32,000 nt of DNA from a bacterium (GTDB lineage Bacteria > Chloroflexota > Anaerolineae > Aggregatilineales > Phototrophicaceae): positions 61,158 to 93,157 of the forward strand of contig JANRLJ010000084.1 in the NCBI GenBank assembly GCA_033762735.1. The letters are read 5' to 3'. Shown piece by piece: positions 745 to 22,012 of the stretch. Under the pieces are notes generated by a model that was given only the letters and a program-made list of their open reading frames with translations, had not been told where the DNA came from and did not search any database. The position numbers and the translations under genes were made by a program. Each line of letters starts with the position of its first letter. The first letter of the stretch is position 1.

Positions 745-925
745 ACCGTTTCCCTTTTGTGCGACGGATATACCGCGAATTATACACGGCAGCGTTGTGG
801 AAAGATCAGCGGTGACTCGCAAGCAGCGTAGGCTGAGCGTGGGAAATTCGGCGGAAACGCAGCGGGCAGCGGTGTTACAATCGGTTCAACTGATTTTCAC
901 ACCATTCAACAGAAGGAGATGTCCT

Positions 926-2614
926 ATGCTGCGTCGATTATGGATTGTCGTGCTGCTGTTCGTCCTGGTGACGGTCGCGGCGGCTCAGGGTGCGCCCGAC
1001 CAGATCAATCTGGCGCTGGCCGATCTTAGCACCCGGCTCGGTTTTCCCGTTACGCTGGAGATTCTCGATAACTGGAACTGGTCACAGGACGATTATCCCG
1101 ACACCAGCCTCGGCTGTCCCCAGGCCGGGCAGGCTTATAACCCGCTCATCACCGTCGGCTATCGCTTCGAGCTGACTTACGGCGGCAGCATTTATGACTA
1201 TCGCGTGGCCGCTGATCGCAGTATTGTCCTCCTGTGCAGTGTGACGCCGCTGGGCGAAACCACACCCGAAGCCACGACCCCTCTCGAAGAGGCGGTCAGC
1301 AATCCGCTGTGTCCGGTGCCGCCCGCTGGCATTGTCTATCCCGTGACTCGTCTGACCGTCGAAATTCAGGGGCGCGTGGTGCCCGGTTTGCCCAATAACG
1401 TCCGCGCCGAACCGAACACGAGCGCGGCACTGGTAGGGGAAATTCCCGGCGGCGGTGTGTTCACCGTCGTGGCAGGGCCTCAGTGCGACGCGACCGGGCT
1501 GGTGTGGTGGCAGGTCGATTTTGATGGGCTGATCGGCTGGACGGCGGAAGGCGCGAATGGGCAGTACTTCATCGAACCTGCTCCTGGTGCGCTGCTGCCC
1601 ACTGACCGCGCCGTGATTGCCCTTGAAAACGCCGCACAGTTGAACGAACTCTCGCGTTTGCAGGGCAATTTTGCGCCTGCGCTGGCCTGGGTGCAGGAAG
1701 CCGCCCCTGATGGCACAACGCCCACGCCTGCACAGTTGATTGCGCTGGGCGACCTCGGCGCAAACGGCGCATGGATTTATGACACAGCGGCACTCGAACA
1801 GGCTCCCCGCATCCTTGACACAGAAACGCGCCTGACCCAAATCGCGGTTGGGCCAGATGCCATCCTGCCTCTGTTTGGCGCGAATGACGGCACGATTCGC
1901 CTTTGGGACATCCGCACCACTGCGCCGCTGCTGGAACGCGCCCAGCTTCAAAGCCAGGCTGATCCGGTGACAGCGGTGGCTTTTAGCGCGGATGGGACGA
2001 CGCTGGCCGCCGCTGGTGGTCGCGCCATTTTGCAGCAGGACGTGCCGGAAAATCAGTACGCGATTGCGACCTGGGATGTGGAAACCGTGTCGCTGCGTCC
2101 GGTCGCGCTGCGCGGGCACACCAACGAGGTCATGGTGCTGGCGTTCGGCATCGATAATACGACGCTCTATTCCGCCAGCCTGGACGGAACCGTTCGCACA
2201 TGGAATGTACAGACGGGGGAATCGACGGTGCTGTATGACGGCGGCGTTTCCATCAATGACATAGCCTTGAGCGCAGATGGTGCGCAGATTGCACTGGCGA
2301 CGGTCGGGCAGGTCGTGCTGCTGAATGCGACCAGTGGTGAAGCGCTGGCGACGATTGCGACTCCGGCAGCTGCCAACAGCGTGAGCTTTAGTCCGGAGGG
2401 AACGCTGCTTGCAGTGGCAGGTGCGGATGGCCTTGTGTCGGTGCTTGATGCCGCTGCAATGGCCGAAGGCAGCGACCAACCGCTGATTACCACCCTGAGC
2501 GGGCACGACGGTGCGGTTGAAGCGGTGGCCTTCAGCCCGGATGGGTCATTAATCGCGACGCTGGGCGAGGATAACACCCTCCGTCTGTGGGGCGTGGTGG
2601 AAAGCGTGGGCTAA
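926..2614 (+). CDS. Secreted protein with an SH3b-like domain followed by WD40 repeats
   Basis: Track ORF is 728..2614. I prefer ATG 926, preceded by aaggaga, which gives the signal-like N-terminus MLRRLWIVVLLFVLVTVAAAQG. SH3b-like segment: NVRAEPNTSAALVGEI...GPQCDATGLVWWQVDFDGLIGWTAEG. WD40-type repeats: GHTNEVMVLAF...DGTVRTWNV and GHDGAVEAVAFSPDGSLIATLGEDNTLRLWGV. Confidence 0.8.
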   Translation: MLRRLWIVVLLFVLVTVAAAQGAPDQINLALADLSTRLGFPVTLEILDNWNWSQDDYPDTSLGCPQAGQAYNPLITVGYRFELTYGGSIYDYRVAADRSIVLLCSVTPLGETTPEATTPLEEAVSNPLCPVPPAGIVYPVTRLTVEIQGRVVPGLPNNVRAEPNTSAALVGEIPGGGVFTVVAGPQCDATGLVWWQVDFDGLIGWTAEGANGQYFIEPAPGALLPTDRAVIALENAAQLNELSRLQGNFAPALAWVQEAAPDGTTPTPAQLIALGDLGANGAWIYDTAALEQAPRILDTETRLTQIAVGPDAILPLFGANDGTIRLWDIRTTAPLLERAQLQSQADPVTAVAFSADGTTLAAAGGRAILQQDVPENQYAIATWDVETVSLRPVALRGHTNEVMVLAFGIDNTTLYSASLDGTVRTWNVQTGESTVLYDGGVSINDIALSADGAQIALATVGQVVLLNATSGEALATIATPAAANSVSFSPEGTLLAVAGADGLVSVLDAAAMAEGSDQPLITTLSGHDGAVEAVAFSPDGSLIATLGEDNTLRLWGVVESVG

Positions 2615-4012: not shown

Positions 4013-4540
4013 ATGCGTCGTTGGGTTTTGGTCGTCGTGGCACTGCTGATGATGGCAGGGATAGGCGCATGTGATCTGCGCCCACCGCCGCCCACACGAA
4101 CCCGCCTGATCGTCAATACCCTGCCGCCTTCTCTCACACCAGAACGCACCGCGACTGCCGTCGCCCAAATCAGCTCCATTCCCAGAAGAACACCTTCACG
4201 CACTCCTGTTCCTCCTGCCACACGAACACGCGCCGTCACCCAATCAGTGCGTCCACAGCCGACTCCGGTCTGCAACGATGCCCCGCCCACCCGTCTGATC
4301 CTGGGTGAACGCGGTCGGGTGCTGGCAGAAGACCCACGTCCACTGAATGTCCGTTCCGGCCCGGGGACGGATTACCGTATTTTCGGACGGCTGGAGGTGA
4401 TGGAAGTGTTCGTCGTCGTGGATGGGCCGATGTGCGGCGACGGCTATGCCTGGTTCAAAATTCAGCGCGGCATCTTAGAGGGATGGATTGCTGAAGGCGA
4501 CCTGGGGATTTATTACGTAGAACCCTTCCTGCCGGGTTGA
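4013..4540 (+). CDS. Putative lipoprotein with a Pro/Thr-rich linker and a C-terminal SH3b-like domain
   Basis: N-terminus MRRWVLVVVALLMMAGIGAC is lipobox-like. C-terminus LNVRSGPGTDYRIFGRLEV...GPMCGDGYAWFKIQRGILEGWIAEGDLGIYYVEP matches the SH3_3 pattern. Confidence 0.7.
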   Translation: MRRWVLVVVALLMMAGIGACDLRPPPPTRTRLIVNTLPPSLTPERTATAVAQISSIPRRTPSRTPVPPATRTRAVTQSVRPQPTPVCNDAPPTRLILGERGRVLAEDPRPLNVRSGPGTDYRIFGRLEVMEVFVVVDGPMCGDGYAWFKIQRGILEGWIAEGDLGIYYVEPFLPG

Positions 4541-8032: not shown

Positions 8033-8875
8033 ATGACCATCACATCGCAGTCCTTCATCAATCAGGGTGAGCGCCTTCATTACCGCACTGCGGGCGACTC
8101 TCAGAATCCGCCCCTGGTGATGGTGCATGGCTGGACATCCTATTCCGGCTACTGGTGGCCGATCTTCGAGGCATTGGCGGATACCCATTACTGCATCGCC
8201 ATTGATCTGCTGGGGCACGGCAGCAGTGACAAACCCCGCGACGGCAATTACAGCATCACCACCAACACACGCCGGGTCCTCGCGCTGGCGGATCATCTGG
8301 GTCTGGACACGTTTACCTTCATCGGACATTCGATGGGCGGGCAGATTGGCTACAACATCGCCCTGCTGCACCCCGAACGGCTGGAACGGCTGATTACCAT
8401 TTCGGGCGTCGCCAGCGGCAGATTGTCGCGCTACATCCGCTGGGTGCATCTGCCCGTGTTTTATGTCGGGGCGATGCTGCCGTCAATCTACGAATTCAGC
8501 CGCCTCGCTGTACGGCGTAACTGGCGCTGGTACATGAACATCTTCGATCCGCCCATTGTGTACGACCCTTCCGCCTATCCGGTGGCTTCGATGGATCACC
8601 AGATGGCGCTTGTGCCGGGCGGCGAGATGGCCTTCTATCGTGAACTGGTGGAAATCCCTCGTCACGATTTAAGCGACCGCCTGCACGAAATTACCACGCC
8701 AACGCTCGTCATCTTCGGGCGACAGGACGGCACTGTTCCGCTGATGGATGCTTACCTAGCGGGCGGCTGCATCCCCAACGCTGAACTGGTGCTGATCGAC
8801 CGCTGCGGTCACAGTCCACTCACCGAACAACCCACGCAGGTGGTGGAAGCCGTGCGGCGCTTTCTGTACAGGTAA
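8033..8875 (+). CDS. Alpha/beta-fold hydrolase
   Basis: Oxyanion motif HGWTSY and nucleophile elbow GHSMGG, with late D and H (GRQDG, CGHSP). The track start at 7982 is TTG; ATG 8033 (MTITSQSF) is more plausible. Confidence 0.85.
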   Translation: MTITSQSFINQGERLHYRTAGDSQNPPLVMVHGWTSYSGYWWPIFEALADTHYCIAIDLLGHGSSDKPRDGNYSITTNTRRVLALADHLGLDTFTFIGHSMGGQIGYNIALLHPERLERLITISGVASGRLSRYIRWVHLPVFYVGAMLPSIYEFSRLAVRRNWRWYMNIFDPPIVYDPSAYPVASMDHQMALVPGGEMAFYRELVEIPRHDLSDRLHEITTPTLVIFGRQDGTVPLMDAYLAGGCIPNAELVLIDRCGHSPLTEQPTQVVEAVRRFLYR

Positions 8876-8881
8876 ACCAAA

Positions 8882-8901
8882 AGACACGGCTGACCGTGTC
8901 T
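8882..8901. terminator. Hairpin between convergent genes; possible terminator of the arl operon
   Basis: agacacgg-ctga-ccgtgtct: 8-bp perfect stem with a 4-nt loop. On the minus strand it is followed by tttggttt. There is no strong U tract on the plus strand. Confidence 0.4.
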
Positions 8902-8929
8902 CTGCACAAACGGCATTATCTGATAAACG

Positions 8930-10063
8930 TTACCCGGCACACTCCGGGTTATCCAGCGGACAGAGCCAGGGGTCTTCGGTCGTCCCCTCACCCACCCAAC
9001 CGCGCTTGCCTTCCCGATCTACATACCAGTGCCAGATATTGTACTCGCTCCACGTCCCGCAAACCGGCCCGGCCAGAATTTGCACCAGTTGACCATCGTA
9101 GACCTGCACCTGTGTATAGGCCGCGCCACCGTCGATTCGATCCATCAGCCGCAGCGCCCCCTCACCGTTAAAATCCACCACGACCCAGTCCCCGACCGCA
9201 AAGCGAATCGGGGGAGCGCCTTCACAGCTTAAAGCAGGGGGCGTCGGGCTGGGGATAACGTCAGGCGCAGCGACAGCCCCATCCACTTCTGCACCCGCCG
9301 CAGAGGGAATCGACTGATCGACGGTCACAGCAGGCGCCGTCATTACCGGAAAGGTAGCGGTCGGCGTGGGAAGTTCAACCCATCCGACGGCTGTCGTTGC
9401 TTCCGGTATGGACAGCGCAGGTGCGGCAGCGACCACGACCGACACAGGTGTCAGCGTCGCCAGCGGTACAGTATCGACCAGGGCTTCACCATTGGCTAAC
9501 GGCGACACGTAAGCGCGGATATCCATCGTCAGCGTATCCCCGTCCTGCCCCTCTCCCAGATTCAGCGTGTCGATCATCACACCCGGCACGGTCGCCTCGC
9601 GGATCTGAACCACGAAGCGCATCAGATCAGCCGCGTCACCGTTCACCTGTAAACGGAACAACCGCGTCTCATAAGGCAGCGTCTCGCTGGTCTGGACGCT
9701 CTGCTGCGTTTGCAGATTGGCAATCATGACGTGGTTGGCCTCGGCATAGGCATACAGCCGATCAAACAGGTCATCGACCTGATCGCTGGTCAAAAAGCTG
9801 CTGGCAGCCTGTGCCAGTTCGGTGCTGGCATTGTCAATACGTGCCGCGTACAGGGTGAGGTCGTCCTCATTCGCCGCCTCGGTATTGGTCGCGTTAAGCT
9901 GTGCCTGCTGTGACTCGCGCATCTGTGTCAGGCGGTCATAAGCCATCCAGTTCGGCAGGACAGAAGCCGCGCAAAACAGCGCATTCCCCACCACCAGCAT
10001 CAACACCAGCAGCAGCGGCAGCCGCCCCCGCCAGCGGGCAATCAGATCACTGACAGCGTTCAT
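8930..10063 (-). CDS. PilO-like type IV pilus assembly protein with a long Pro/Ala/Thr/Val linker and a C-terminal Cys-containing SH3b-like domain
   Basis: N-terminal TM (LPLLLVLMLVVGNALFCAA), then a coiled coil. PilO-type core: LPYETRLFRLQVNGDAADLMRFVVQIREATVPGVMIDTLNL...LTMDIRAYV. C-terminal domain: GPVCGTWSEYNIWHWYVDREGKRGWVGEG. Its ATG overlaps the stop of the upstream gene (ATGA). Confidence 0.6.
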   Translation of the reverse strand: MNAVSDLIARWRGRLPLLLVLMLVVGNALFCAASVLPNWMAYDRLTQMRESQQAQLNATNTEAANEDDLTLYAARIDNASTELAQAASSFLTSDQVDDLFDRLYAYAEANHVMIANLQTQQSVQTSETLPYETRLFRLQVNGDAADLMRFVVQIREATVPGVMIDTLNLGEGQDGDTLTMDIRAYVSPLANGEALVDTVPLATLTPVSVVVAAAPALSIPEATTAVGWVELPTPTATFPVMTAPAVTVDQSIPSAAGAEVDGAVAAPDVIPSPTPPALSCEGAPPIRFAVGDWVVVDFNGEGALRLMDRIDGGAAYTQVQVYDGQLVQILAGPVCGTWSEYNIWHWYVDREGKRGWVGEGTTEDPWLCPLDNPECAG

Positions 10064-10707
10064 ACGCGCTCCAGAATGAGGACAAACTCGACAAAATAGG
10101 CTTCGGTCAGCGGCTCGGACGGTGATCCGGTCACACCCTGCGGTGCGTCCTGTGCTGCGACAAGCGGCGGTGTCGGCGTCGGCACCGCCCGCAGCGCAAT
10201 CGACTGAACCGTCACCCGCGCGAACAGGCCACAGGTCTTGAGCGCATCCGCATACGCGGTGACAACTGCTTCGTCGCTGGCCTGACCATTGAGCGTGATG
10301 CGATTTTCCGCCTGAGCAATGCTGTGCAGTGTCAGTAACGCCGGATCATAATTCGAGATGTGCTGCATGGCGGTCGGCCAGTCCAGATGATCGGCGGCCA
10401 GTTCGGTCTGCACAGGCTGCAAGCCGACGATCTGTTCCTGAATGGCGACCAGCGTTGAGGAAAGTGCCTGTTCCTGGTCGGAAGGCGGCAGTGTCACCAG
10501 CAGTTGTTCTTCCATCTGCGCCATTTCGGCCTCTAGCGGCATGTTCAGGTCACGGATGGTCATGGAGACGATATTGAGCGCGGCGAACACCATGACCAGG
10601 CTGAGCGCGACAATCCAGATAATCCACCTTCCAAACCCGCCCTGACGCGGCGCAACGGGGATACTCACGTCTTGTTCTTCTGGAAAAGCAGGGTTTATTG
10701 GCTGCAT
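10060..10707 (-). CDS. PilN-like fimbrial assembly protein
   Basis: Short cytoplasmic N-terminus (MQPINPAFP), one TM (WIIWIVALSLVMVFAALNIV) and a coiled coil. PilN-type C-terminus: LTLHSIAQAENRITLNGQASDEAVVTAYADALKTCGLFARVTVQSI. SD aaggaaag lies upstream. Confidence 0.6.
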   Translation of the reverse strand: MQPINPAFPEEQDVSIPVAPRQGGFGRWIIWIVALSLVMVFAALNIVSMTIRDLNMPLEAEMAQMEEQLLVTLPPSDQEQALSSTLVAIQEQIVGLQPVQTELAADHLDWPTAMQHISNYDPALLTLHSIAQAENRITLNGQASDEAVVTAYADALKTCGLFARVTVQSIALRAVPTPTPPLVAAQDAPQGVTGSPSEPLTEAYFVEFVLILERV

Positions 10708-10722
10708 CGAGAGCTTTCCTTA

Positions 10723-11358
10723 TCACAGAGTCAAAAACGGATTGAAGACCAGCGCGATCATCGCTCCCAGGCAGAGGCACGGCGCATAGGGAAAGGTGAT
10801 CGAGCGCGACCGATGGCGCAGCAGCAGTCCCACCGCCAGCACACCGCCCATCCCCACACCGACAATCAGCGCCCACAGCACACCGGGAAATCCGAGCATC
10901 AGGCCGATCAGCAGCGCCAGCTTCACGTCGCCCATGCCCAGCCCGCCGGGTGAGATGAAGGCCGCGCCCATGAAGATCGTCAGGGCAAACCCACCGCCGA
11001 CCAGCACAAACAGGATCGGATGACCGAGCAGCACATGCGCCGTGAGCGTCAGCAGCAGCGCGGGGTAGATCATCAGGTTGAGCACCAGACGATAGCGCAG
11101 GTCGATCAGCGTGATAAGCAGGAAGAACATAAACAGCCCGGCCAGCAGAGCGAACTGTGCGGTTAACCCGTAAGCAGTAAACAGCAGGCCAAAGCTGGCC
11201 GCACCTGCAAGCATCACCGCATACAGCGGGATTACAACCCCCTGAACCGGTTCATCATACTGGTCGGTCGGCAGCAGCTTCCACTGTGGCAGCCGTTCAG
11301 TCACAAGCGCCGTCAAAGTGCCGCAAACTGCACCAAGCGCCGTTATCAGCACGATCAT
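10723..11358 (-). CDS. A24-family prepilin/prearchaellin peptidase (PibD/ArlK/TadV-like; no methyltransferase domain)
   Basis: Polytopic membrane protein carrying both aspartate motifs: LITLIDLRYRLV and GGLGMGDVKLALLIG (GxGDxK). Its ATG overlaps the upstream stop (ATGA at 11355-11358). Confidence 0.85.
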   Translation of the reverse strand: MIVLITALGAVCGTLTALVTERLPQWKLLPTDQYDEPVQGVVIPLYAVMLAGAASFGLLFTAYGLTAQFALLAGLFMFFLLITLIDLRYRLVLNLMIYPALLLTLTAHVLLGHPILFVLVGGGFALTIFMGAAFISPGGLGMGDVKLALLIGLMLGFPGVLWALIVGVGMGGVLAVGLLLRHRSRSITFPYAPCLCLGAMIALVFNPFLTL

Positions 11359-11885
11359 GCCTGCGCCTTTCCACCGAACGCGGCAGCGGTTTTGCTACAG
11401 AGAGCGGCCAGGTCGTGAATGTCGATCTGCGGCAGATCGCGGATCAGCACCGCCCGCTTTTCAGCATTATTGTCTTCGACAAACACACTCAGCAGATCGA
11501 GCATCGACTCCGACGCTGGCTTTGCGTCGGTCGTCGTTTCAGTCGACGTGACCGGGGTTGATGCGGCCTCTGGTTGGGCACTTGGGGCAGCGGACGCGGA
11601 CGTGCTTGCAGGCGCAGCGGAGGGACTCGTCGTTGTTGAGGCAGCCTTGGATGATGTATCGCGCAGTGTTATCACTGGTTCACTTTCTTCCAGCACTTCG
11701 CGTTCGGCCATTTCCCGTGCTGCCTGCTCCGCCGTTTCCTGCATTCTTCGCACAGCACGACGGGCGCGTATGGCTTTGAACATCGACAGCACACCAAGCA
11801 GCAGCGCCAGCAGCAGCAGCAGCCCCGCGCCGCCCAGCGTCAGCAGGACGAGCCTTTGATTGAGGAGTGCTTCAATCAGTGACAT
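11355..11885 (-). CDS. Single-pass membrane protein with a coiled coil and a Ser/Thr/Ala/Pro-rich linker; function unknown (ArlX-like topology only)
   Basis: TM helix LVLLTLGGAGLLLLLALLLGVL, a charged helix RRMQETAEQAAREMAEREVLEE, then a low-complexity region. It sits inside the operon, 25 nt after arlJ. I recognise no diagnostic motif. Confidence 0.5.
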   Translation of the reverse strand: MSLIEALLNQRLVLLTLGGAGLLLLLALLLGVLSMFKAIRARRAVRRMQETAEQAAREMAEREVLEESEPVITLRDTSSKAASTTTSPSAAPASTSASAAPSAQPEAASTPVTSTETTTDAKPASESMLDLLSVFVEDNNAEKRAVLIRDLPQIDIHDLAALCSKTAAAFGGKAQA

Positions 11886-11910: not shown

Positions 11911-13398
11911 TTAGAGCGTCAGAATTCCAGCCACCATCGGCGGCACGACCAGGAAGGAAATACCCGAAATGAACACCGTCAGCGCCAGATAGAACGCCAT
12001 CTTGACCCTGAAGCCGCCATCACACACGATAATGGCTGCCGCGCTGACCAGCGCCAGCAGCAGGATCATGCCTACGGTGATGGTGTGCAGAAATTGCAGA
12101 TCAGCGGCGGAAAACTCGGCCATGCCCAGGCTCATGTTGACCTGCCCGTTGGCGGCCTCCGTGTTCTGTGGCATCAGCGTGGCGACCAGCGCGGCGAAGT
12201 TGTTGATGATAGACAATACGAACACCATCAGTCCGGCGACCACGGCCTGCATGACGGTCGTCAGACCCGAAAATGTCCCGGCGGTCAGGCGGCGTTTGGC
12301 ACGGAGCTGAGTGGTTTTAGCGGCGAACAGCGAACACAGATAGCCCACGCGCTCCGGGTCACCACCGATTTTGACCGCGCCGTAGAAGATGTCGGTCACG
12401 GCGCTGATGAGCTTGCTGCCTGTGTCCTCCCCGAACTTGCGCCAGCACACCTCCGGCTCGACCAGCGCCTGCAAACGCTTGCTCAGGCGGTCGATGTCCG
12501 GTGCTAACGCCGGGAAGGAGGTTAAATCCATGCGGGTGAGCGCCTGCTTAAGCGTCGTCCCGGTCGAATTTGCCATACCGCCGACCGAACGCAGAAAGGT
12601 ACTGAACTCGGCATCGCGTTTAATGCGCTTCTTCTCGCTTGCCAGCGCGGCAATCCCGATGGGCAGCAGCAGCACCGCCACCCACATCAGCAGCCAACCC
12701 AGCGGCACACCCAGCAAATTCATCAGGGCGGCGCTGGCGAAGCATACCGGGATGAGCGTGCGAAACAACCGCATTGCCCGCTGCTGTTCAGGCGAGCCAT
12801 GAGATGGTTTGTTGGTCATTTTTTCACGCGGGGCGGAACGGTAAATAATCCAGGCCCCCATCACCGCCATCATGAAGCCCGTCATCACCAGACCGCCCAT
12901 GACCGTCACATCCATCGAATAAATCATGGAAGAGATCATCTGAATAATGACGATCAGCGCGACCGAGATCACAATCGAGGAAAAGGCATTCGACCACTGC
13001 TTCATCGCTTCCAGATCGCGCTCGTAGCGGTTTTCGTAGTCCTCGGCCTGTACCTCCGCCTCACGCGCCAAAAAATCCGCCAGCGGCTCGCCAGAGCGCA
13101 GCGCATCCGACAGGCGCAGCAGGAAGCTTTTCATGTTTTCTGATTTCGCCTTGCTCCCCACGCGGCGGCAGGCTTCGGGATAGTCATAGCGGAACTCATC
13201 CACCAGCGTGTTCACAGCAGCGAAATAGACCGCCGCGCCAGACGATGACTGTGCCGCGATCTGAAAAATCTTCCCCCGTGACAACCCGGCGGAGGCCATC
13301 GCGGAGAGATACGTCATCTGGTAGAACATATCGAAGGGCGAGACTGGCTTAAAGGAGTTTTTGTCTTCGCGCTTCGGCGAGGACGCCAAAGAGTTCAT
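11911..13398 (-). CDS. arlJ: Archaellum polytopic membrane platform protein ArlJ (FlaJ; T2SS-F/TadBC-like)
   Basis: 495 aa with many TM helices, the two-half architecture typical of FlaJ/TadBC, and a position directly after arlI. The start is uncertain. Start 13398 overlaps arlI by 50 nt. The alternative ATG at 13329 (MFYQMTYLSAMASAG) leaves a 19-nt gap. Confidence 0.8.
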   Translation of the reverse strand: MNSLASSPKREDKNSFKPVSPFDMFYQMTYLSAMASAGLSRGKIFQIAAQSSSGAAVYFAAVNTLVDEFRYDYPEACRRVGSKAKSENMKSFLLRLSDALRSGEPLADFLAREAEVQAEDYENRYERDLEAMKQWSNAFSSIVISVALIVIIQMISSMIYSMDVTVMGGLVMTGFMMAVMGAWIIYRSAPREKMTNKPSHGSPEQQRAMRLFRTLIPVCFASAALMNLLGVPLGWLLMWVAVLLLPIGIAALASEKKRIKRDAEFSTFLRSVGGMANSTGTTLKQALTRMDLTSFPALAPDIDRLSKRLQALVEPEVCWRKFGEDTGSKLISAVTDIFYGAVKIGGDPERVGYLCSLFAAKTTQLRAKRRLTAGTFSGLTTVMQAVVAGLMVFVLSIINNFAALVATLMPQNTEAANGQVNMSLGMAEFSAADLQFLHTITVGMILLLALVSAAAIIVCDGGFRVKMAFYLALTVFISGISFLVVPPMVAGILTL

Positions 13399-15043
13399 GA
13401 AAGTCCGTTACCCCTTTCTCTTTATGCAGCTTTTCCAGAATTTTGGCGCGGCGCTTCACCTCGTCGTAGATGTCCTTGCGACGATGCGGCGGGATCCCGC
13501 GCTTGATGGCGATGATCTGCTCCAGCAGGTAGCTGTTCATGTAACCGGGGAACTCAAACGTGTCGTTGGCCGGGTTCCAGCGGAAGGCCTCCAGGAACGA
13601 AAAGCTCTCCGTCAACGGGTCATAGCCGATGATTTCGTTGATGCTCAGCACACGACGCGCCGAACGGCCATCCGCCAGGCGCACGGCTGACTGAATCACC
13701 GCCAGGTTCAGATTGTCGATATAGGTCTTGGGGATGTTGATCGGATCGCCCGTGAGACGCTGGATGAGCTTTTCGACCGATGCCGCGTGAAAGGTGGACA
13801 TCACGCCGTGCCCGGTCTGCATTGCCTGGAACGCGACGACGGCTTCCATACTGCGGATTTCACCGACGATAATCATTTCAGGGCGCTGGCGCAGCGCGGC
13901 TTTGAGCAGTTCAAACATGCCTACGTCGCTGCCCTTCTTCTCTCCCCCGCCGTGCCGCGTGGATTCCTGCACCCAGTTCTTGTGCGGCACCTGCACTTCA
14001 GGCGTGTCCTCAATGGTCACGATTTTCGCATCAGGGCGGATAAAGGTGGTGATGGCGTTGAGCAGCGTGGTCTTGCCGGAAGCGGTCGCGCCCACCACAA
14101 AGCAGTTCATCCCGGCTTCCAGCATCAGCGAGAGATAGGCCGCCATCGTATAGTTGAGGCTGCCGAACTCGATCAGTTCGAGCACACTGGTTGGTGTGCC
14201 GGAAAACTTACGAATAGTGAAGTTGCTGCCTCGCTTGCTGATCTCCCGCCCATACACGATGTTGATACGCGAACCATCGGGCAGCACCGCATCCACCAGC
14301 GGATTGCGCACCGTCACCGGGCTTTTGATCCACTCCCCCAGCCACACGGCGAATTCGTCCACGTCGTCATAATCGACAAATTCAATGGACGACTGCACAC
14401 TCTTAAAAATCTTGTGTTCGATGAAGATATGGCCGACGCCGCTGCAACTGATGTCTTCGATATAGGGATCAAGCAGCAGCGGTTGCAGCACGCCCAGACC
14501 AATCTTGTCGCGCAGTACGCGATATCGAACCGCTTCAAGCTCACCCGGCGAGACATACACCAGCGGTTTGCGGAAGTTAATCGTCGCGTTTTTGTCCGTC
14601 GTGCAGATCGTATCCAGCAGATTAAGCAGCAGTGCCCGCTTTTCTTCCTTGTCTTCCACACGCCCGATTTGCTCAGCATAGATCACCAGCCGTTCCTCAA
14701 TCTGCGGCATCAGGTGGTCGATGTTGACGACCGAGGTCGGTTCAATCGGGATGTAATGATCGCGGGCGCCGGTAAAATCCGGGTAGATGTGGACGAACAG
14801 GCCTTCCTTGATCGGATAGATCAGGTTTTTCACGGGCAGATCGCTCAGGCTGCGCGCCACCTTCGGATAAAAGGCGGGTATGCCGATCTCGTCAATAGGA
14901 AGCCGCTGCACATAAGCGGCCAGGAAGGACGACTCTGCACAGGCCTTTTGCAGCGCTTCGGAAAGCTGGGGTTGCAGGCGTGCCCAGGCTTCACGGCTGG
15001 GCTGGAGGGCCTGACCATCAAACGGAAGTGTCGTTCTCGCCAT
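13349..15043 (-). CDS. arlI: Archaellum motor ATPase ArlI (FlaI; secretion ATPase superfamily)
   Basis: Walker A VVGATASGKTTLLNA, Asp box IVTIEDTPEV, Walker B RQRPEMIIVGEIR and His box GHGVMSTFHA. The N-terminal region DISCSGVGHIFIEH is typical of FlaI/VirB11-type ATPases. Confidence 0.9.
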   Translation of the reverse strand: MARTTLPFDGQALQPSREAWARLQPQLSEALQKACAESSFLAAYVQRLPIDEIGIPAFYPKVARSLSDLPVKNLIYPIKEGLFVHIYPDFTGARDHYIPIEPTSVVNIDHLMPQIEERLVIYAEQIGRVEDKEEKRALLLNLLDTICTTDKNATINFRKPLVYVSPGELEAVRYRVLRDKIGLGVLQPLLLDPYIEDISCSGVGHIFIEHKIFKSVQSSIEFVDYDDVDEFAVWLGEWIKSPVTVRNPLVDAVLPDGSRINIVYGREISKRGSNFTIRKFSGTPTSVLELIEFGSLNYTMAAYLSLMLEAGMNCFVVGATASGKTTLLNAITTFIRPDAKIVTIEDTPEVQVPHKNWVQESTRHGGGEKKGSDVGMFELLKAALRQRPEMIIVGEIRSMEAVVAFQAMQTGHGVMSTFHAASVEKLIQRLTGDPINIPKTYIDNLNLAVIQSAVRLADGRSARRVLSINEIIGYDPLTESFSFLEAFRWNPANDTFEFPGYMNSYLLEQIIAIKRGIPPHRRKDIYDEVKRRAKILEKLHKEKGVTDFHELFGVLAEARRQKLL

Positions 15044-15053
15044 AGGACTTTGC

Positions 15054-15764
15054 TTAACCTCGTGCCTTACTAATGGGGATCACACGCATCCCCCAGCCCG
15101 GTTCCACTTCAAAACCGACAATCGCGCCTGTCACGCTGCCCGCACCGCGCACCTTTGCCACTTCCAGCGTTTTGACGAGCCGCTGCCCATCCTGCTCTGA
15201 ACGCAGTTTTAAGTGCGCGTCACACATCGACCGCAGCGGCGCGATCAGTTCCTCGTCAAACGCCTTCGGATGCAGCGTGAGGATCACCGTCTGCCCGGTG
15301 GCGCAAAGCTGCTTGCACTGCTCGAAGAAGCTCAGGATTTGCCAGTCGGCGGATTTTTTCCCGGTCGCGGCGGTGAATGAGTCCACGATAATGACATCAC
15401 GATCCGGGTGCTGTTTAAGTGCATCGATGAGCGCGAACGGTGCTTTGTCTCCCAGCCGCGCCAGTGCCATGGGGTACACGCGCAGCTTGCGCAGCAGCAG
15501 AAAATCAAGCACATCCAGGTCGATGCTCTCCATCTGGCTCAGCAGGCTTTTGACCGTGTTCTCGCTGGTGAAGACGGCAGCGCTGAAGCCCTCCCGCAGC
15601 GCCCCGCTCAGGATTTGCTGGGAAAGGACAGACTTGCCTGCGCCGGAGGTGCCTTCGATCAGCGTCAGCGACCCGGCAGGCAGACCGCCGCCCATTTTGC
15701 TGTCCAGTTCGACGTTACCAGAGGAAATCGTCCGTTTTTTCGGACTATCAGGTGCGTTCTTCAT
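15054..15764 (-). CDS. arlH: KaiC/RecA-like ATP-binding protein ArlH (FlaH)
   Basis: 236 aa. Motifs VELDSKMGGGLPAGSLTLIEGTSGAGKSVLSQQ (Walker A) and DVIIVDSF (Walker B-like). It lies immediately upstream of arlI, as in archaeal arl operons. Confidence 0.8.
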   Translation of the reverse strand: MKNAPDSPKKRTISSGNVELDSKMGGGLPAGSLTLIEGTSGAGKSVLSQQILSGALREGFSAAVFTSENTVKSLLSQMESIDLDVLDFLLLRKLRVYPMALARLGDKAPFALIDALKQHPDRDVIIVDSFTAATGKKSADWQILSFFEQCKQLCATGQTVILTLHPKAFDEELIAPLRSMCDAHLKLRSEQDGQRLVKTLEVAKVRGAGSVTGAIVGFEVEPGWGMRVIPISKARG

Positions 15765-15788
15765 TGCGTCGGTCGCTTTCTTCGGCTG

Positions 15789-16925
15789 TCAGGGCATCGC
15801 CAGGTAGAACGTGAACGGGCCAATCGTCGCTTCGCCATCCGTGATGGTGAACTGGAAGCTGTCCAGGCCTGCCGCCAGACGGCTGTAGCCGACGGCGCCC
15901 GCGTCCAGATCAGCCTGGGTAAAGGTCGTCCCCGGCGTAAGCGTACCCAGGGTTGGCCCGCTGATGATGGTGTAGACCAGTTCGGCAGGCAGGTTATCCA
16001 CATCGGTTGCGGTCAGCGCCGCCGCCGGGATGCTCCCGCTGGCGCCTTCGGGCACAGTGATGATGGAATTGGTCGCCAGCACAGGCGCAGCGTTGGTCGT
16101 CATGATGGTAAAGGTATAGAGGCCGATCACGTCCTCGCCGTCGCTTACCTGGAACACGAAGCTGTCATTACCGTCGCCGGTGTGCGTGTATTCCAGCGCA
16201 TCCTCGTCGATCTGTGTCTGTGTGAACGTCGTCGGCAGGTTGAGTTCACCCTGTTCCGGCGGTGTCATCACGGTGAAAACCAGGTCTTCCGGCAGGTCAT
16301 CCAGATCAACGGCCTGCAAATGCGTAACGAGAATGTCAGCAGACGTGCGGCTTTCCAGCGTCAGCCCGGTATTGACCACCAGCACAGGCGGGACGTTGCG
16401 TATGGCCTGGACGGACACACCCGCGCCGTTGCCCGCAATCACCAGCGCGAGCAGGGTTTGACCATGCCCCACACCTGGCGCGACCTGAATTTGAATCACG
16501 ATTTCCTCGCCGGGATTGAGGATGCCGTTCTCAAACACTTCCGGCTGCGCTTTGGCCGCGTCCTGATAAATCCCGCTGACCTTCCAGGTATTGTCGAGCG
16601 CGCCGCCCCTATTGATGGGCACCCAGCGCACATGATATTCCGCGGCGTCCTGGGTATAGTACTGGACGATGATGTCCCACTGGTCGAAATTCACCAGTCG
16701 GTTTTCGCCCGTGTTGCGATAGGTCACCTCTGCCACCGTCCCACCGCCTGCGATGCGGGCGGCAACGGGCGTAAGGCTGGTGCGGCTTTGGTCATCAAGA
16801 CGGCTTTCCATCGTCTGCCATGCTTCCTGCACTTCGTTCTGAGCCTCGAAGAAGCGCGTCGTCAGCGTGAACGTCGCCAGCAGGAACAGGAGCAGAACAA
16901 CCAGACCAGACAGCACAGAGTCCAT
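15789..16925 (-). CDS. ArlF/ArlG-family protein (N-terminal TM plus beta-sandwich) with two C-terminal cadherin-like repeats
   Basis: N-terminus MDSVLSGLVVLLLFLLATFTL. The first 170 aa or so resemble FlaF/FlaG-type proteins. Residues about 177-376 are two units of about 95 aa sharing N-x-P/A-PVL...D-x-D-x-LP-x-x-LV-F/Y-T...TFTQ...D...DSF-x-F...DGE...IG...TF. Confidence 0.6.
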   Translation of the reverse strand: MDSVLSGLVVLLLFLLATFTLTTRFFEAQNEVQEAWQTMESRLDDQSRTSLTPVAARIAGGGTVAEVTYRNTGENRLVNFDQWDIIVQYYTQDAAEYHVRWVPINRGGALDNTWKVSGIYQDAAKAQPEVFENGILNPGEEIVIQIQVAPGVGHGQTLLALVIAGNGAGVSVQAIRNVPPVLVVNTGLTLESRTSADILVTHLQAVDLDDLPEDLVFTVMTPPEQGELNLPTTFTQTQIDEDALEYTHTGDGNDSFVFQVSDGEDVIGLYTFTIMTTNAAPVLATNSIITVPEGASGSIPAAALTATDVDNLPAELVYTIISGPTLGTLTPGTTFTQADLDAGAVGYSRLAAGLDSFQFTITDGEATIGPFTFYLAMP

Positions 16926-16928
16926 CGC

Positions 16929-17441
16929 TTACAGCCCCATAAAGGTTTCGTCTTCGACCCCGCTGGGAGTCACGACTTTGGCGAAGTAGCGCCCGCTGGT
17001 CAGGGGCAGCGAAAAACGGATGGTAATGCGCAGAGTGGCGGTCGGCGTCCATTCTGCTGCGTTTTCCACGGTCCATGTCCACGAAGGCAGGCTGCCGTTC
17101 GCAGCGCTTTCGTGCGGAATTCGCGCGAAATTGCCTTCCGGCCCAAAGAACACATCGAGCTGATCGACAGCGGTGATGCGGCTGTCGCCGATGTTCTTTA
17201 CCCATAAAAGGACATCAAACTGACCGTTGCCGTTGGTATCCTGCCACCAACCGGCGCTGTCCAGTTCACCCGTCGCGTGAATCAGGCGAATCTGCGTGCG
17301 CATCTGATCCTGGGTGCGCCCGGCCATGCTGGTGATGGCATCACCGCCCTCGACCACCGCCGGATAGGCAACGTTAAAAAGCATCACCGCCAGGATCATG
17401 CTGATGACAATGAGGAGCGCTGTGGTGATCGCTTTATCCAT
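16929..17441 (-). CDS. ArlF/ArlG-family protein (small; uncleaved archaellin-like N-terminal helix)
   Basis: I prefer ATG 17441 (MDKAITTALLIVISMILAVMLFNVAYPAV). It is preceded by ggaga and overlaps the upstream stop by 8 nt; the track start is 17483. The beta-rich remainder contains VLLWVKNIGDSRI. Synteny places it between the arlCDE-like gene and arlH. Confidence 0.6.
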   Translation of the reverse strand: MDKAITTALLIVISMILAVMLFNVAYPAVVEGGDAITSMAGRTQDQMRTQIRLIHATGELDSAGWWQDTNGNGQFDVLLWVKNIGDSRITAVDQLDVFFGPEGNFARIPHESAANGSLPSWTWTVENAAEWTPTATLRITIRFSLPLTSGRYFAKVVTPSGVEDETFMGL

Positions 17442-18234
17442 TGCGCTTTCTCCACTGGACACCGGCGCTGGCGTTGTGGACACCCGCGATCAACCGCAGC
17501 ACCATCTGGGAGCGCCCTTCAACCTTTTCCACTTCGGCAGTGGTGCGGGCAGGGGTTTTAGGAGTGGGCTTCTGTGGCGCGGGTGTGATCTGCACCGGAA
17601 CAGCGGCCCCTGACTTCTTCGCAGTTGGTTGTTCAGGGGCAGTCTTCGTCCTGGCGCTGACGACCGCCGTCTCGCGGCTGTCCCGCTCGGCAATCACTTC
17701 CTCATAAGTGGCAACCAGACGCAGAAGATCATCGCGCACCTTGCGGTTAAAGCGGCCTTCCTCGGCGTAGCGCCTGATAAGTTCACGTGTGCGCCTGGCA
17801 CCAATCCGCCCCACCTGTTCGCTCGCCCACCCTTCCAGCGCGGCCAGTGTCGTCCAATCGACTTCCTTCGAGGCAGGCGCAGCGCTTGATTTGCGAGCGG
17901 TTTTGGGCGCGGCAGGCGTGGGGGCAAGGCTGGTTTCCTCCTGCCAGCCTGTGCCGAGCTGGTCAACGCTCGTCACTTTTCTGACACTGGGCAGCGGTGC
18001 TTCGGGTGCGGGGTTGCTGGCCGCAGTCGCTTCCACTGGAGTGGTCGTGAAGGAGACGACGGACGGGCGATGCTGCGGAGCCGGATCGTCGGGATTGTCG
18101 CTGTTGCTCGTGCGCAGGGTGGGATGCGCACCGTTGAGCAGTTGTTCCTGAATATCGAGCAGGCTGGCTTGAATCTGCCCTTTCAGGATTTGGATTTCTT
18201 CTTCCAGTACCTTAACGCGCTGTTCGAGATCCAT
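17434..18234 (-). CDS. Coiled-coil protein, possibly ArlC/D/E-like archaellum accessory protein
   Basis: N-terminal coiled coil MDLEQRVKVLEEEIQILKGQIQASLLDIQEQL, then Pro/Ala/Thr-rich linkers. The segment VDWTTLAALEGWASEQVGRIGARRTRELIRRYAEEGRFNRKVRDDLLRL resembles, from memory, the FlaD/E-domain pattern (W..fL...vG..g....L.yY...G.i...v...L). It occupies the arlCDE/arlX position right after arlB. Coding status is more certain than the family call. Confidence 0.45.
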   Translation of the reverse strand: MDLEQRVKVLEEEIQILKGQIQASLLDIQEQLLNGAHPTLRTSNSDNPDDPAPQHRPSVVSFTTTPVEATAASNPAPEAPLPSVRKVTSVDQLGTGWQEETSLAPTPAAPKTARKSSAAPASKEVDWTTLAALEGWASEQVGRIGARRTRELIRRYAEEGRFNRKVRDDLLRLVATYEEVIAERDSRETAVVSARTKTAPEQPTAKKSGAAVPVQITPAPQKPTPKTPARTTAEVEKVEGRSQMVLRLIAGVHNASAGVQWRKRNG

Positions 18235-18329
18235 AACGCACCTGAGAGTGTTTCGCTTGTCGTACTGTCGGGAGATTGAAAGGTATTTTTGATGCGCTTT
18301 TGAAAATTAATTTTTTATAGTTTGAGGCC

Positions 18330-18358
18330 GGGGCGGCACTTTTTTGAAGAACCGCCCC
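18330..18358 (-). other. Stem-loop just downstream of the archaellin stop codon
   Basis: ggggcgg / ccgcccc 7-bp GC stem with a 15-nt loop, 37 nt after the arlB stop. No U tract follows on the minus strand, so I do not call it a canonical terminator. Confidence 0.3.
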
Positions 18359-18394
18359 TCCTTGCCAGACGAATTCGCTGTACAGACCGGGAGA

Positions 18395-18964
18395 TTAGAA
18401 TTCGTTGACCGCTTCAATCGCCGGGGGCGTGGTGCGGGCGAAGGTCAGAACCGCGCCCGTCGGGGGTTTCACTTCCAGCGTGAATTCGGTGTTCGGGCCG
18501 AGGTTGGCAGCGGCCAGCGGCACGGTGATTTCCACCAGTTCGCCTTCTTCCAGCAGATCGTCAGCATCCGCCGTGCCAGCAGCGCCATCGACATCCACGA
18601 TCCAGGTCGCAGTCCAGTTCAGCCCCGTCAGAATTTGCGTGTTGTCGCGATAGTCGATCACCACCACACGGTTGGCATCATTCATGTTGACCGGTTCGCC
18701 ACCTGCGACGAGCTGCAGCGAGAAGCGCACGTTGGTCACTTCGTTGGTCGCACCTTCGGCGAGGATGGAACCCTTGACCTGCATCGAGGACTGAACGCCT
18801 TCCAGACCAGCAGCAATCGCCTGTTCGCCGCGTTCCGTAGAGGCTGTACCAGCAGACAGGATGGTGAAGGCGAAGACCGACGCGACGACGACGAAAGCGA
18901 TGAGGATGATGGCGGTTTCCAGGGCAGTCTGACCACGCTGTTCTTTGTTGAAGTTGTTGAACAT
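18395..18964 (-). CDS. arlB: Archaellin (archaeal flagellin) ArlB with a class III signal peptide
   Basis: I prefer ATG 18964 (track start 19066). N-terminus [39 protein letters not shown] has a short basic leader ending in RG, followed by the hydrophobic helix. The body has archaellin-like features: [16 protein letters not shown]...[29 protein letters not shown]. Confidence 0.85.
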
Positions 18965-19612
18965 GATGTTTGCTTTTCCTTTTGGTATGTTGTTTGGCTT
19001 CGGATGGTTGATTGGTCTTGTATTGCTCAAGGGCTTCGGATACTTATGCTTATCAGACGTACTCAATGGTGCTAGGTCAAGTTGGTTGGCTCTATGCGAA
19101 GTCGTCTGTGTACTCCCTTCTTCATCGTGCAGTTTCCATGGAGAAATACCCGGCGGACAACGTTGTCAACCAGCAGTGACCGGGCTTCCCATGAAGGCGT
19201 TCGTTGGTGAGGAGAATTTCAAAGTATGTGGCAGAACTACGCAGGTCTAACGGTGATTCGGCTGGGCTGCGATGTAGAGTTCGTTGTGCCTGGTACTTGA
19301 ATACTGCTCTCCGTCATTGATTTCATCCTATTGCCAGAATTGAGATGTGTCAATAGAGCAACAATTAATTTTTCCGTCGTTAATTGTTTTTTCAGAAATT
19401 AGTCATCGACTTTTCCGACAAATGTCACATTCCTGCTTTAATTTGATGATTCTTTCTTGATAAAGGGCGAAAAATTGAGAAATTGTGTTCCTTAAATTCA
19501 ATAATTGACGGCTGCGGATGGCATTTTTACGCATGTATCACAATTCTAACGCACCAGATTCAAGCAGACAAAGCATTAAGGTTTTCTATTAGTTTCTTCA
19601 ATTGAAGGCCAT

Positions 19613-19681: not shown

Positions 19682-20881
19682 ATGCGGATACTTTTATCGT
19701 TTATGGGCGGCAGCGGGCATTTTCTGCCGCTGGTTTCGATTGCCCATGCAGCACAGGACACCGGACATGAAGTAGCCTTTGTCAGTGGTGGGTCGATGCA
19801 ACCGACCGTCGAGACAATGGGCTTTTCGGTGGTGAATAACGCTGTTGAAAGGCCAGAAGCACAACCCCCTCAGCGCCTTTCCTTGCAAACGGTGAATGTA
19901 AAACGCGAGGAAGACGACCTGCGGGAGAAATTCGCCCGTCATGCTGCCCGTTCACGCGCCGCGGAAATGCTTGAGGTGTGTGCCAGATGGATGCCTGATG
20001 TCATCGTCTGCGATGAGGTCGATTTTGGCAGTATGATCGCCGGGGAAAAGCTCGGAATCCCTTATGCCAGCGTGGTCGTGATCGCATCGGGTTCGTTCAT
20101 TCGTCTGGAGGTGGTCGGTGAAGCGCTAAACGAGGTTCGAGCAGGATACCATCTTCCGCCCGATTCTGAGCTGAAGATGCTCTCGCGCGATCTCGTCCTG
20201 ACTCCTGTCCCACGCAGCTTTCGCGACCCGGCCTTTCCCCTGCCCCCGACCGCCCATCTCATCCGACCGGAGATGCCAGAGGCGCAACCATCAGCACTGT
20301 CGATCTCGTTTCCGGAGCCAGACCGCCCACTCGTCTATTTCACGCTGGGCACGATCTTCAATCTGGAGTCGGGCGATCTGTTCACCCGCGTTCTGGAAGG
20401 GCTGCGCGATCTGCCGATCAACGTTGTGATGACGGTCGGCCCGCACATCCAGCCAGCAGAATTCGGCGCACAGCCCGACCATATCCATATCGCACAGTAC
20501 ATCCCGCAGGCCAGCATCCTGCCACACTGTGCGGCGGTCATCTCGCACGGCGGTTCTGGCAGCGTGATCGCAGCGCTGGCGCATGGCCTGCCGATGGTGC
20601 TGCTGCCAATGGGGGCAGATCAGCCGCACAACGCCGCCCGGTGCGAAGCGCTTGGTGTCGCCCGTGTGCTGGATGTGGTGGCGGCAGCGCCAACCCTGAT
20701 TCGGGATGCGCTCAAGGCCGTCTTGAGTGAACCGTCCTACCGTGCCGCCGCCAAAGGCCTGCGCGATGAAATCGCCGCGATGCCGCATCCCTCATCCGCC
20801 GTGCCGCTGCTGGAACGTCTTGCGACAGACAAATCAGCGTTTCGTAGTATGAGACACACATGTCAAGTATACCGGACATGA
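19682..20881 (+). CDS. GT1-family (GT-B fold, MGT/UDP-glycosyltransferase-like) glycosyltransferase
   Basis: N-terminus MRILLSFMGGSGHFLPLVSIA. C-terminal nucleotide-sugar motif HGGSGSVIAALAHGLPMVLLPMGADQPHNA, typical of macrolide/sterol-type GT1 enzymes. Confidence 0.85.
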   Translation: MRILLSFMGGSGHFLPLVSIAHAAQDTGHEVAFVSGGSMQPTVETMGFSVVNNAVERPEAQPPQRLSLQTVNVKREEDDLREKFARHAARSRAAEMLEVCARWMPDVIVCDEVDFGSMIAGEKLGIPYASVVVIASGSFIRLEVVGEALNEVRAGYHLPPDSELKMLSRDLVLTPVPRSFRDPAFPLPPTAHLIRPEMPEAQPSALSISFPEPDRPLVYFTLGTIFNLESGDLFTRVLEGLRDLPINVVMTVGPHIQPAEFGAQPDHIHIAQYIPQASILPHCAAVISHGGSGSVIAALAHGLPMVLLPMGADQPHNAARCEALGVARVLDVVAAAPTLIRDALKAVLSEPSYRAAAKGLRDEIAAMPHPSSAVPLLERLATDKSAFRSMRHTCQVYRT

Positions 20882-21618: not shown

Positions 21619-21625
21619 AAATCAA

Positions 21626-21988: not shown

Positions 21989-22012
21989 AATTTGGTTTCT
22001 CCCTAGAAAACA

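Follow-up and report, generated by a model that had tools for sequence, protein, structure and literature searches.

A candidate bacterial adaptor module with PilN- and PilO-like proteins at the 3' end of an archaellum operon in an Anaerolineae bacterium

We analysed a 32,000-nucleotide stretch of genome (contig JANRLJ010000084.1, positions 61,158 to 93,157; hereafter 'the window') from a bacterium of the Anaerolineae (Chloroflexota) that carries an operon for an archaellum, and focused on the four genes that directly follow arlJ, the gene for the archaellum platform protein. They encode a small single-pass membrane protein, a peptidase of the A24 family, a PilN-like protein and a PilO-like protein. 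We consider it reasonably likely that these genes form a bacterial module that adapts an arl2-type archaellum, acquired by horizontal transfer, to its host, with the PilN- and PilO-like proteins probably connecting the motor to the host's cell wall. An original prediction made from the same DNA had proposed that bacterial 'envelope-spanning' parts were recruited to fit an archaeal motor into a bacterial envelope. We infer the same recruitment, a view strengthened by the swappable, putatively wall-binding C-terminus of the PilO-like protein described below; the label needs correction, since PilN and PilO are membrane-anchored periplasmic scaffold proteins instead.

No known transfer of a complete motility machine from Archaea to Bacteria is clearer than the archaellum of Chloroflexota, and this raises the question of how a motor suited to an envelope with an S-layer can operate behind peptidoglycan. 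The concept of a PilN/PilO scaffold was already published in 2025-2026: a functional archaellum was described in Litorilinea aerophila, with pilN and a pilO-LysM gene nearby for which co-option for anchoring was suggested (Sivabalasarma et al., Nat Microbiol 2025, PMC12488501), and PilN/PilO was proposed explicitly as an alternative alignment scaffold in a study that tabulated pilN/pilO presence (Front Microbiol 2026, PMC13319060). The main basis for that idea is the gene neighbourhood of a single cultivated species, together with a BLASTP survey. The comparative data given here make the hypothesis firmer and easier to test, in that the cassette is integral to the operon, and under selection, in every relative with sufficient sequence, and includes a processing peptidase, a further conserved membrane protein and a PilO with an interchangeable, putatively wall-binding head.

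Operon layout and conservation of the module

The original prediction described four genes after arlJ linked by ATGA overlaps or gaps of 15-25 nt, and both the open reading frame (ORF) list of the window and the junctions read from the sequence bear this out. All four ORFs lie 3' of arlJ on the minus strand, at the positions previously assigned to them:

11911..13398, minus strand: arlJ, archaellum platform protein (NCBIfam ArlJ/FlaJ, E 1e-115), directly upstream of the module
11885..11355, minus strand: 176-aa single-pass membrane protein (from its translation), directly after arlJ
11358..10723, minus strand: A24 peptidase, 211 aa (Pfam Peptidase_A24)
10707..10060, minus strand: PilN-like protein, 215 aa (Pfam PilN, structural model and Foldseek)
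10063..8930, minus strand: PilO-like protein, 377 aa (Foldseek and the Pfam scores of relatives)
8903..8874, minus strand: intrinsic-terminator-like hairpin with a 10-bp stem and a 4-nt loop, followed by UUUUGGUUU (from folding)

The arlJ stop codon is separated from the ATG of the 176-aa gene by a 25-nt gap containing a Shine-Dalgarno-like GAGAGG, and that gene is joined to the peptidase gene by an ATGA overlap. A 15-nt gap with AAGGAAAG then leads to the PilN-like gene, which is in turn joined to the PilO-like gene by a second ATGA overlap. The GC-rich hairpin directly 3' of the PilO-like stop codon (dG -18.4 kcal/mol, z -2.2) is not among the matches of a consensus terminator scan; judging from its predicted fold, we take it to be the terminator that closes the operon. 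The gene beyond it, for an alpha/beta hydrolase, is convergent. As the junctions are too tight to hold another promoter and the last gene is followed by a terminator, the sequence gives no indication that the four genes form an operon of their own, an arrangement that the original prediction had named as evidence against it. In GenBank, the products of locus tags SF029_09445 and SF029_09440 are both labelled hypothetical.

The PilO-like protein has few homologues, about 20 clusters among 5.8 billion proteins. Five genomic contexts display a single gene order (arlB, a counterpart of a 266-aa protein, arlG, arlF, arlH, arlI, arlJ and then the small protein, peptidase, PilN-like and PilO-like genes), with flanking genes that differ by locus and, in two of the five, a gene for an FHA-GAF histidine kinase between the small protein and the peptidase. 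These five contexts are the basis on which we judged whether every PilO-like gene of the family sits in an arl operon; a metagenome scan with a five-sequence PilO-like alignment returned 94 pattern matches and no confirmed relative.

A scan with an ArlJ alignment, using one genome per GTDB species, yielded 58 loci, nearly all from Chloroflexota/Anaerolineae (one, L038, is labelled Pleurocapsa), which were searched with purpose-built hidden Markov models (HMMs). The window ArlJ is 58-73% identical to that of 56 relatives and by this similarity groups with Anaerolineae/Aggregatilineales genomes. Ten loci lie on contigs that end too soon, and the complete module is found directly after arlJ in all 48 that have enough DNA past that gene. 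Two loci considered as exceptions (L021 and L038) were rejected as such, because both match the small-protein HMM and their apparent deviation is an artefact of calling starts by the longest ORF. The FHA-GAF kinase is encoded in 30 of the 48 loci and is absent from the window. Where present (for example L004 6944-8629 and L005 7673-9358, and also L009-L013) it is about 560 aa long, combines FHA, GAF and histidine-kinase domains, and may be a dedicated archaellum regulator.

A second scan was made with a more distant type of ArlJ, 43-46% identical to that of the window (the second arl clade). Four of its loci (L071, L074, L080 and L087) have the same gene order, and it is partially visible on contigs that end early. 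The linkage check proposed with the original prediction thus finds the four genes after arlJ in every relative of the window clade with sufficient sequence and in most second-clade loci. Pairwise ratios of nonsynonymous to synonymous substitution rates (dN/dS) range from 0.07 to 0.29 for the four genes (0.08-0.29 for the 176-aa protein and 0.10-0.19 for the peptidase), as compared to 0.04-0.11 for ArlJ, and the PilN- and PilO-like proteins are 26-37% identical where ArlJ is 64-72% identical. Because these ratios are low and yet above those of ArlJ, we conclude that the four genes are functional and evolve faster than the motor core.

These observations bear on whether the genes could instead be a bystander, namely a remnant of a type IV pilus (T4P) operon (pilD...pilMNO) lying beside an inserted arl cluster and serving Tad or other pili, or nothing at all. 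The order pilD-pilM-pilN-pilO is typical of bacterial T4P loci, which would suit such an origin, as would the low transcript levels of the PilN/PilO region in L. aerophila (PMC12488501) and the Tad-like pili made by that organism (PMC13319060). Yet the same order after arlJ, with its 4-nt overlaps, recurs in all 48 species-level relatives despite their differing flanks, and again in the second clade; all four genes are under purifying selection; and no pilin, pilus ATPase, pilus platform or PilM gene lies nearby in the window or in five relatives. We therefore regard a bystander origin as distinctly improbable.

The absence of pilus partners extends further. The original prediction noted that no pilM gene is present, and no Pfam match to PilM, PilP or the secretin PilQ was found among the other plausible ORFs of the window, nor within 10 kb on either side in the five relatives. 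The genes pilM, pilP and pilQ are likewise reported absent from the L. aerophila genome (PMC13319060).

The genes upstream of arlJ identify the archaellum as arl2-type, with arlB, arlG, arlF, arlH, arlI and arlJ in one locus and a class III signal peptide at the start of ArlB. This remainder of the operon spans 13349..18964 on the minus strand, in the same order as in relatives:

19325..19353, minus strand: sigma-70-like promoter, TTGACA-17-TAGGAT, upstream of arlB (consensus match only)
18964..18395, minus strand: arlB (Arch_flagellin, E 3e-28), with its true start at the ATG at 18964
18234..17434, minus strand: 266-aa protein between arlB and arlG, without a Pfam or NCBIfam family
17483..16929, minus strand: ArlG-like protein (weak family match)
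16925..15789, minus strand: ArlF-like protein with cadherin-like domains (weak ArlF match)
15764..15054, minus strand: arlH (NCBIfam FlaH, 243.7 bits, above cut-off)
15043..13349, minus strand: arlI (ArlI, 640 bits, above cut-off)

Two further features of this region were observed. The arlI and arlJ genes overlap by 50 nt (13349-13398), and both the overlap and an ArlJ N-terminus reading MNSxxSSPKREDKNSFKPVSPFDMFYQ are kept across relatives, so the overlap looks real rather than an artefact of start calling. A GC-rich inverted repeat, GGGGCGG...CCGCCCC, lies just past the arlB stop codon (about 18325-18360, minus strand); it has no T-run, is separated from the next gene by an AT-rich 160-nt spacer, and may act in attenuation or RNA stability, thereby setting the stoichiometry of archaellin to motor.

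The encoded proteins and the exchangeable PilO head

The 215-aa protein passes the Pfam cut-off for PilN (PF05137; 24.2 bits as compared to 22.8, E 3.4e-5, residues 117-173), and a precomputed PF05137 match is present in 8 of 14 members of its family. An AlphaFold (AF2) model built from 14 sequences, with a predicted local distance difference test (pLDDT) score of 73.3, contains a helix at residues 25-70 that comprises a transmembrane (TM) segment and a coiled coil, followed by a beta-beta-alpha-beta...beta arrangement corresponding to a ferredoxin-like domain with an inserted Pro-rich loop. In the PDB, Foldseek matched the model best to the ferredoxin-like periplasmic domains of PulM, XcpY/GspL, PulL, EpsL and PilO (E 2e-3 to 2e-2, TM-scores 0.56-0.72), and the sequence profile weakly matched Myxococcus xanthus PilN (3jc8, E 0.028) among PDB sequences. 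The N-in bitopic topology, coiled-coil helix and ferredoxin-like periplasmic domain expected of PilN are all present in the model and its Foldseek matches, and the earlier description of the protein as PilN-like stands on both its Pfam score and its resemblance to domains of the PilO/GspL/GspM type.

The N-terminus of the PilN-like protein reads MQPINPAFPEEQD, lacking the INLLP-type motif through which PilN binds PilM, as had been pointed out. None of 54 PilN-like sequences contains that motif. In all of them the cytoplasmic N-terminus (about 27 aa) is acidic and variable, with only an S/G-R-L-x-x-W-L motif conserved at the membrane boundary. Such a tail fits the absence of PilM, and because three of the five parts are missing along with the PilM-binding motif, we conclude that the system is not a PilMNOPQ alignment complex.

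The 377-aa protein consists of three segments:

9494..10063, minus strand: PilO-like module, residues 1-190, with a short N-terminus, a TM helix, coiled-coil helices and a ferredoxin-like domain
9233..9493, minus strand: disordered linker rich in Pro, Thr and Ala, residues ~191-277 (low pLDDT)
8930..9232, minus strand: C-terminal all-beta domain of about 100 aa, the range including the stop codon (AF2 model and Cys conservation)

Its score of 17.3 bits against Pfam PilO (PF04350) falls below the cut-off of 22, and PilO matches in 10 of 19 homologues are likewise below cut-off, with a best E of 1e-4. An AlphaFold model built from 19 sequences (pLDDT 76.9) has the TM helix, coiled coil and ferredoxin-like domain of PilO, and its top Foldseek match is Pseudomonas aeruginosa PilO (2rjz_A/B, E 6e-5, TM-scores 0.57-0.62), followed by further matches to M. 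xanthus PilO (3jc8_O, E 7e-4) and 5uvr. The profile of the PilO-like family gave only chance coiled-coil matches among PDB sequences. Weak profile matches to T2SSM and GspM were also obtained.

The second clade provides a bridge between these proteins and established families. Its PilN-like proteins score 29.9-36.1 bits against Pfam PilN, and its LysM-type proteins at the PilO position score 24.6 and 28.6 bits against Pfam PilO, all above the respective cut-offs; the same proteins match the HMMs of the window clade with E 1e-36 to 1e-54. These scores tie the window proteins to bona fide PilN and PilO and to the published PilO-LysM type. The designation of the 377-aa protein as PilO-like accordingly holds, on the strength of its fold (2rjz, 3jc8_O) and of these relatives, and the structure comparison suggested with the original prediction ends in matches to PilO, GspL and GspM ferredoxin-like domains.

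It might still be argued that the two proteins are no homologues of PilN and PilO at all, being bitopic proteins of no particular family that share a widespread ferredoxin-like fold and match Pfam by chance. The sub-threshold Pfam score of the window PilO-like protein would agree with this, as would the PDB sequence-profile results (E 0.028 for PilN and nothing for PilO), the modest Foldseek E-values of the PilN-like model, and a comparison of the two families by hhalign that was not significant and is uninformative either way. We find this hardly credible, because the proteins that head the Foldseek lists are PilO, GspM and GspL in particular, in matches that span both the coiled coil and the ferredoxin-like domain; because the PilN-like protein passes its Pfam cut-off, while the second-clade proteins pass both cut-offs and match the window-clade HMMs; and because paired adjacent genes and N-in bitopic topology are what the family would predict. 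By profile and fold, both are members of the PilN/PilO family. Neither non-homology nor a bystander origin is readily compatible with the synteny, selection and profile data.

The part of the PilO-like protein that follows its PilO module is the more variable. The linker, with a pLDDT of about 40 at residues 201-270, varies in length and sequence across the alignment. The C-terminal domain is modelled with a pLDDT above 90 as a small, beta-barrel-like fold of seven strands; Cys335, Cys368 and Cys375 are invariant and Cys280 is present in at least 90% of sequences. Weak matches to SH3 domains were found in the PDB (2ega, E 0.037) and, for a few members, in Pfam (SH3_3, E 0.009; SH3_2, E 0.018). 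We tentatively describe the domain as SH3-like and propose it as a putative cell-envelope-binding anchor.

This Cys-rich SH3-like head is found in 25 of the 48 loci, including the window. Other relatives carry in its place a ConA/LamG-like jelly roll or a CE2_N/CBM-like domain; two loci (L039 and L043) have other beta-rich heads, two (L018 and L023) have a Pro/Thr tail without any head domain, and in the second arl clade the head is LysM (E 1e-17 to 5e-19). Three loci encode tandem PilO paralogues with different heads (L004 10001-12241, L033 15080-17373 and L091 7871-10198), one member of each pair having a Cys-rich SH3-like head and the other a ConA-like head. The PilO module and Pro/Thr-rich linker are therefore kept while the head domain swaps between lineages. 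LysM is an established peptidoglycan-binding module, and for that reason the simplest reading of the swap is a constant membrane-proximal scaffold combined with a lineage-specific wall or glycan anchor.

The Cys-rich SH3-like domain was also seen outside arl loci, in a 229-aa protein (L007 8001-8690, P0023) and a 511-aa protein (L025 25-1560) that contain no other Pfam domains, and it thus appears to be a mobile module. Within the window, SH3_3 domains are encoded at 728-2614 (plus strand), fused to WD40 repeats, and at 4013-4540 (plus strand), in a 175-aa protein; wall-binding modules of the SH3 type seem to be frequent in the genome.

The peptidase was called correctly from the sequence: the 211-aa protein scores 39.5 bits against Peptidase_A24 (cut-off 26.5), and the catalytic D86 and the G141-x-G143-D144 (GxGD) motif, which supply both catalytic Asp residues, are invariant among 14 aligned relatives. 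Pfam finds no N-terminal Cys-rich/N-methyltransferase domain of the PilD type, and there are no CxxC pairs in the first cytoplasmic loop, which is short; searches of PDB sequences, with the single sequence or a profile, gave no match. Its sequence identifies the protein as a short-type A24 (GxGD aspartyl) prepilin/prearchaellin peptidase whose active site is intact.

The 176-aa protein had been described as a single-pass coiled-coil membrane protein. The single TM helix is confirmed, and the protein is not clearly of the coiled-coil kind. Its conservation profile comprises an MSLxDxIL N-terminus, the TM helix and a basic patch, then a short charged helix, a long and variable stretch rich in Ser, Thr, Ala and Pro, and finally a conserved helical C-terminal motif (LLSVFxDE...). 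By the positive-inside rule, the bulk of the protein is predicted to be cytoplasmic. Neither Pfam nor NCBIfam offers a credible family for it, and we consider it a family- or lineage-specific small membrane protein. ArlX, which also combines a single TM helix with a cytoplasmic part, was rejected as its identity, since no profile supports it and the 266-aa protein already occupies the place of arlX between arlB and arlG.

Proposed mechanism and neighbouring genes

In the mechanism we propose, the A24 peptidase would process ArlB by cleavage at its class III signal peptide, and possibly ArlF and ArlG at theirs. The PilN- and PilO-like proteins, both bitopic with their N-termini inside, would heterodimerise through their coiled coils and ferredoxin-like domains, as their homologues of type IVa pili (T4aP) and the type II secretion system (T2SS) do, and these heterodimers or higher oligomers would, to judge from that homology, assemble around the ArlJ platform at the outer face of the membrane. 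From there, the PilO-like protein could reach outward through its Pro/Thr-rich linker of about 85 residues and grip the wall with its C-terminal domain, so that the motor would be held in register with the peptidoglycan or polysaccharide layers and with its exit site. No PilM would be involved, the cytoplasmic tail of the PilN-like protein being short, acidic and unconserved, and the small protein may connect the complex to the cytoplasmic parts of the motor through its conserved C-terminal motif. In archaea, a static anchor is provided by ArlF and ArlG binding the S-layer; the PilN/PilO-like assembly would supply a static anchor for rotor torque in addition to ArlF/ArlG.

An alternative that we consider unlikely is that the proteins are assembly factors rather than anchors: the pair would stabilise ArlJ and help to extract processed archaellins from the membrane into the filament, a role that has been proposed for PilN/PilO in pili and for GspL/GspM in pseudopili, while the C-terminal domain would serve only for localisation. 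Structurally, the PilN-like protein is in fact closest to the T2SS platform proteins GspM and GspL, the genes adjoin those for the peptidase and the platform, and a PilO-PilC interaction and PilO-dependent localisation of PilC are described in literature cited in PMC13319060. In contrast, archaeal archaella assemble without such proteins, as do those of some Chloroflexota loci (L084; Dehalococcoidia in Table S4), and a long linker with a swappable glycan- or wall-binding domain fits anchoring better. The two roles are not mutually exclusive.

Several observations weigh against an adaptor that anchors the motor to the wall. Two second-clade loci (L084 and L076) encode the small protein and the peptidase with no recognisable PilN or PilO adjoining, and archaellated Dehalococcoidia are entered as lacking PilN/PilO by BLASTP in the part of the published Table S4 considered here (PMC13319060). 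The association of PilN/PilO with arl is therefore strong and not absolute, and the pair is not required for every bacterial archaellum. To these are added the low PilN/PilO-region transcripts of L. aerophila, the sub-threshold Pfam score of the window PilO-like protein, and the weakness of the SH3 matches to its head (E 0.01-0.04).

A bolder form of the adaptor hypothesis, which we offer tentatively and doubt somewhat more than we believe, holds that the Anaerolineae archaellum works only with a co-transcribed bacterial cassette composed of the small tail-anchored protein, sometimes the FHA-GAF kinase, the A24 peptidase, a PilM-independent PilN and a PilO, and that the PilO head is exchanged (LysM, SH3-like, ConA-like or CBM-like) to match wall chemistry, serving as a modular stator anchor that replaces anchoring to an S-layer. 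If so, the cassette would be the key innovation that let an archaeal rotary motor work across the domain boundary, and its anchor domain would predict envelope composition in uncultured Chloroflexota.

Other genes of the arl operon and its surroundings were also inspected. The ArlF-like protein (15789-16925, minus strand) ends in two cadherin-like/Big_9 domains (Pfam Cadherin_3, E 3e-38), a fusion that is kept in relatives and absent from the account in the 2025 paper (PMC12488501); these domains could be another envelope-binding adaptation of the stator. The 266-aa protein (17434-18234, minus strand), at the arlX/arlCDE position of arl2 loci, has an N-terminal coiled coil and a low-complexity middle, and is found in all relatives with its own HMM (X266). 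Upstream of arlB and divergent from it, a GT1-family glycosyltransferase (EryCIII-like/UDPGT; 19682-20881, plus strand) could glycosylate the archaellin.

Beyond it lies a low-GC island (20980-22939; GC 0.35-0.37, as compared to about 0.60 around it) with three minus-strand genes, for a PIN-like protein, a STAS-like DUF4325 protein and a HATPase_c protein. PADLOC returned only a weak partial match to DrmA, for the HATPase_c protein; the island was probably acquired horizontally and is possibly defence-related. A gene for a methyl-accepting chemotaxis protein (27812-28936, plus strand; MCPsignal, E 1e-35), followed by two ORFs without a family match, is situated some 9 kb away from the arl operon and bears on the reported coupling of chemosensory system and archaellum.

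Comparison with known systems

The closest known counterparts are the archaellum loci of L. aerophila and other Anaerolineae, which share with the window an arl2-type archaellum, PilN and PilO homologues nearby, the lack of pilM, pilP and pilQ, and the same proposed scaffold role. The likeness to the published PilO-LysM extends to sequence, as the LysM-type loci L069, L071 and L080 match the window-clade HMMs (E 1e-36 to 1e-54). The window differs in that the head of its PilO-like protein is Cys-rich and SH3-like rather than LysM; in that its genes are joined by translational coupling to the arl operon, whose 3' end they form, instead of lying just 'nearby' or 'upstream'; and in that the A24 peptidase is within the operon, whereas it is placed outside the arl locus in PMC12488501. 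The window-clade module further includes a small membrane protein that is conserved and, in 30 of the 48 loci, the FHA-GAF histidine kinase. New relative to the published work are the strict inclusion of the genes in the operon, a peptidase encoded within it, the small protein and an anchor domain that can be swapped.

The published BLASTP survey detected PilN and PilO in 34 of 235 genomes (PMC13319060), as compared to all 48 adequately sequenced loci of the window clade by HMM and synteny. In the part of Table S4 of that study considered here, we counted at least 35 genomes with both proteins, all of them Anaerolineae and many Aggregatilineales, and the genome of Aggregatilinea lenta is entered there as 'no' under its GCA accession and 'yes' under its GCF accession. 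This patchy table probably underestimates the spread of the cassette.

The PilMNOPQ complex of type IVa pili (P. aeruginosa and M. xanthus; 2rjz and 3jc8) is similar in having two bitopic proteins, encoded by adjacent genes, that both combine a coiled coil with a ferredoxin-like domain in the periplasm. Unlike that complex, the window has no PilM, PilP or PilQ and no INLLP motif in its PilN-like protein; its PilO-like protein adds a long linker and a C-terminal domain; and the partner is the rotary ArlHIJ motor rather than PilBCT. GspL and GspM of type II secretion (PulL/PulM, XcpY/XcpZ) share the ferredoxin-like periplasmic fold and provide the best Foldseek matches of the PilN-like protein, whereas the window lacks the ATPase-binding cytoplasmic domain of GspL and other T2SS genes.

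Finally, the ArlF/ArlG stator of archaea offers a proposed analogy in function, as a static periplasmic anchor to the outermost wall layer, while the PilN/PilO-like pair is unrelated to it in sequence and fold. ArlF-like and ArlG-like genes are also present in the window operon, the former additionally bearing cadherin-like domains, and the PilN/PilO-like pair would be an extra anchor of bacterial type.

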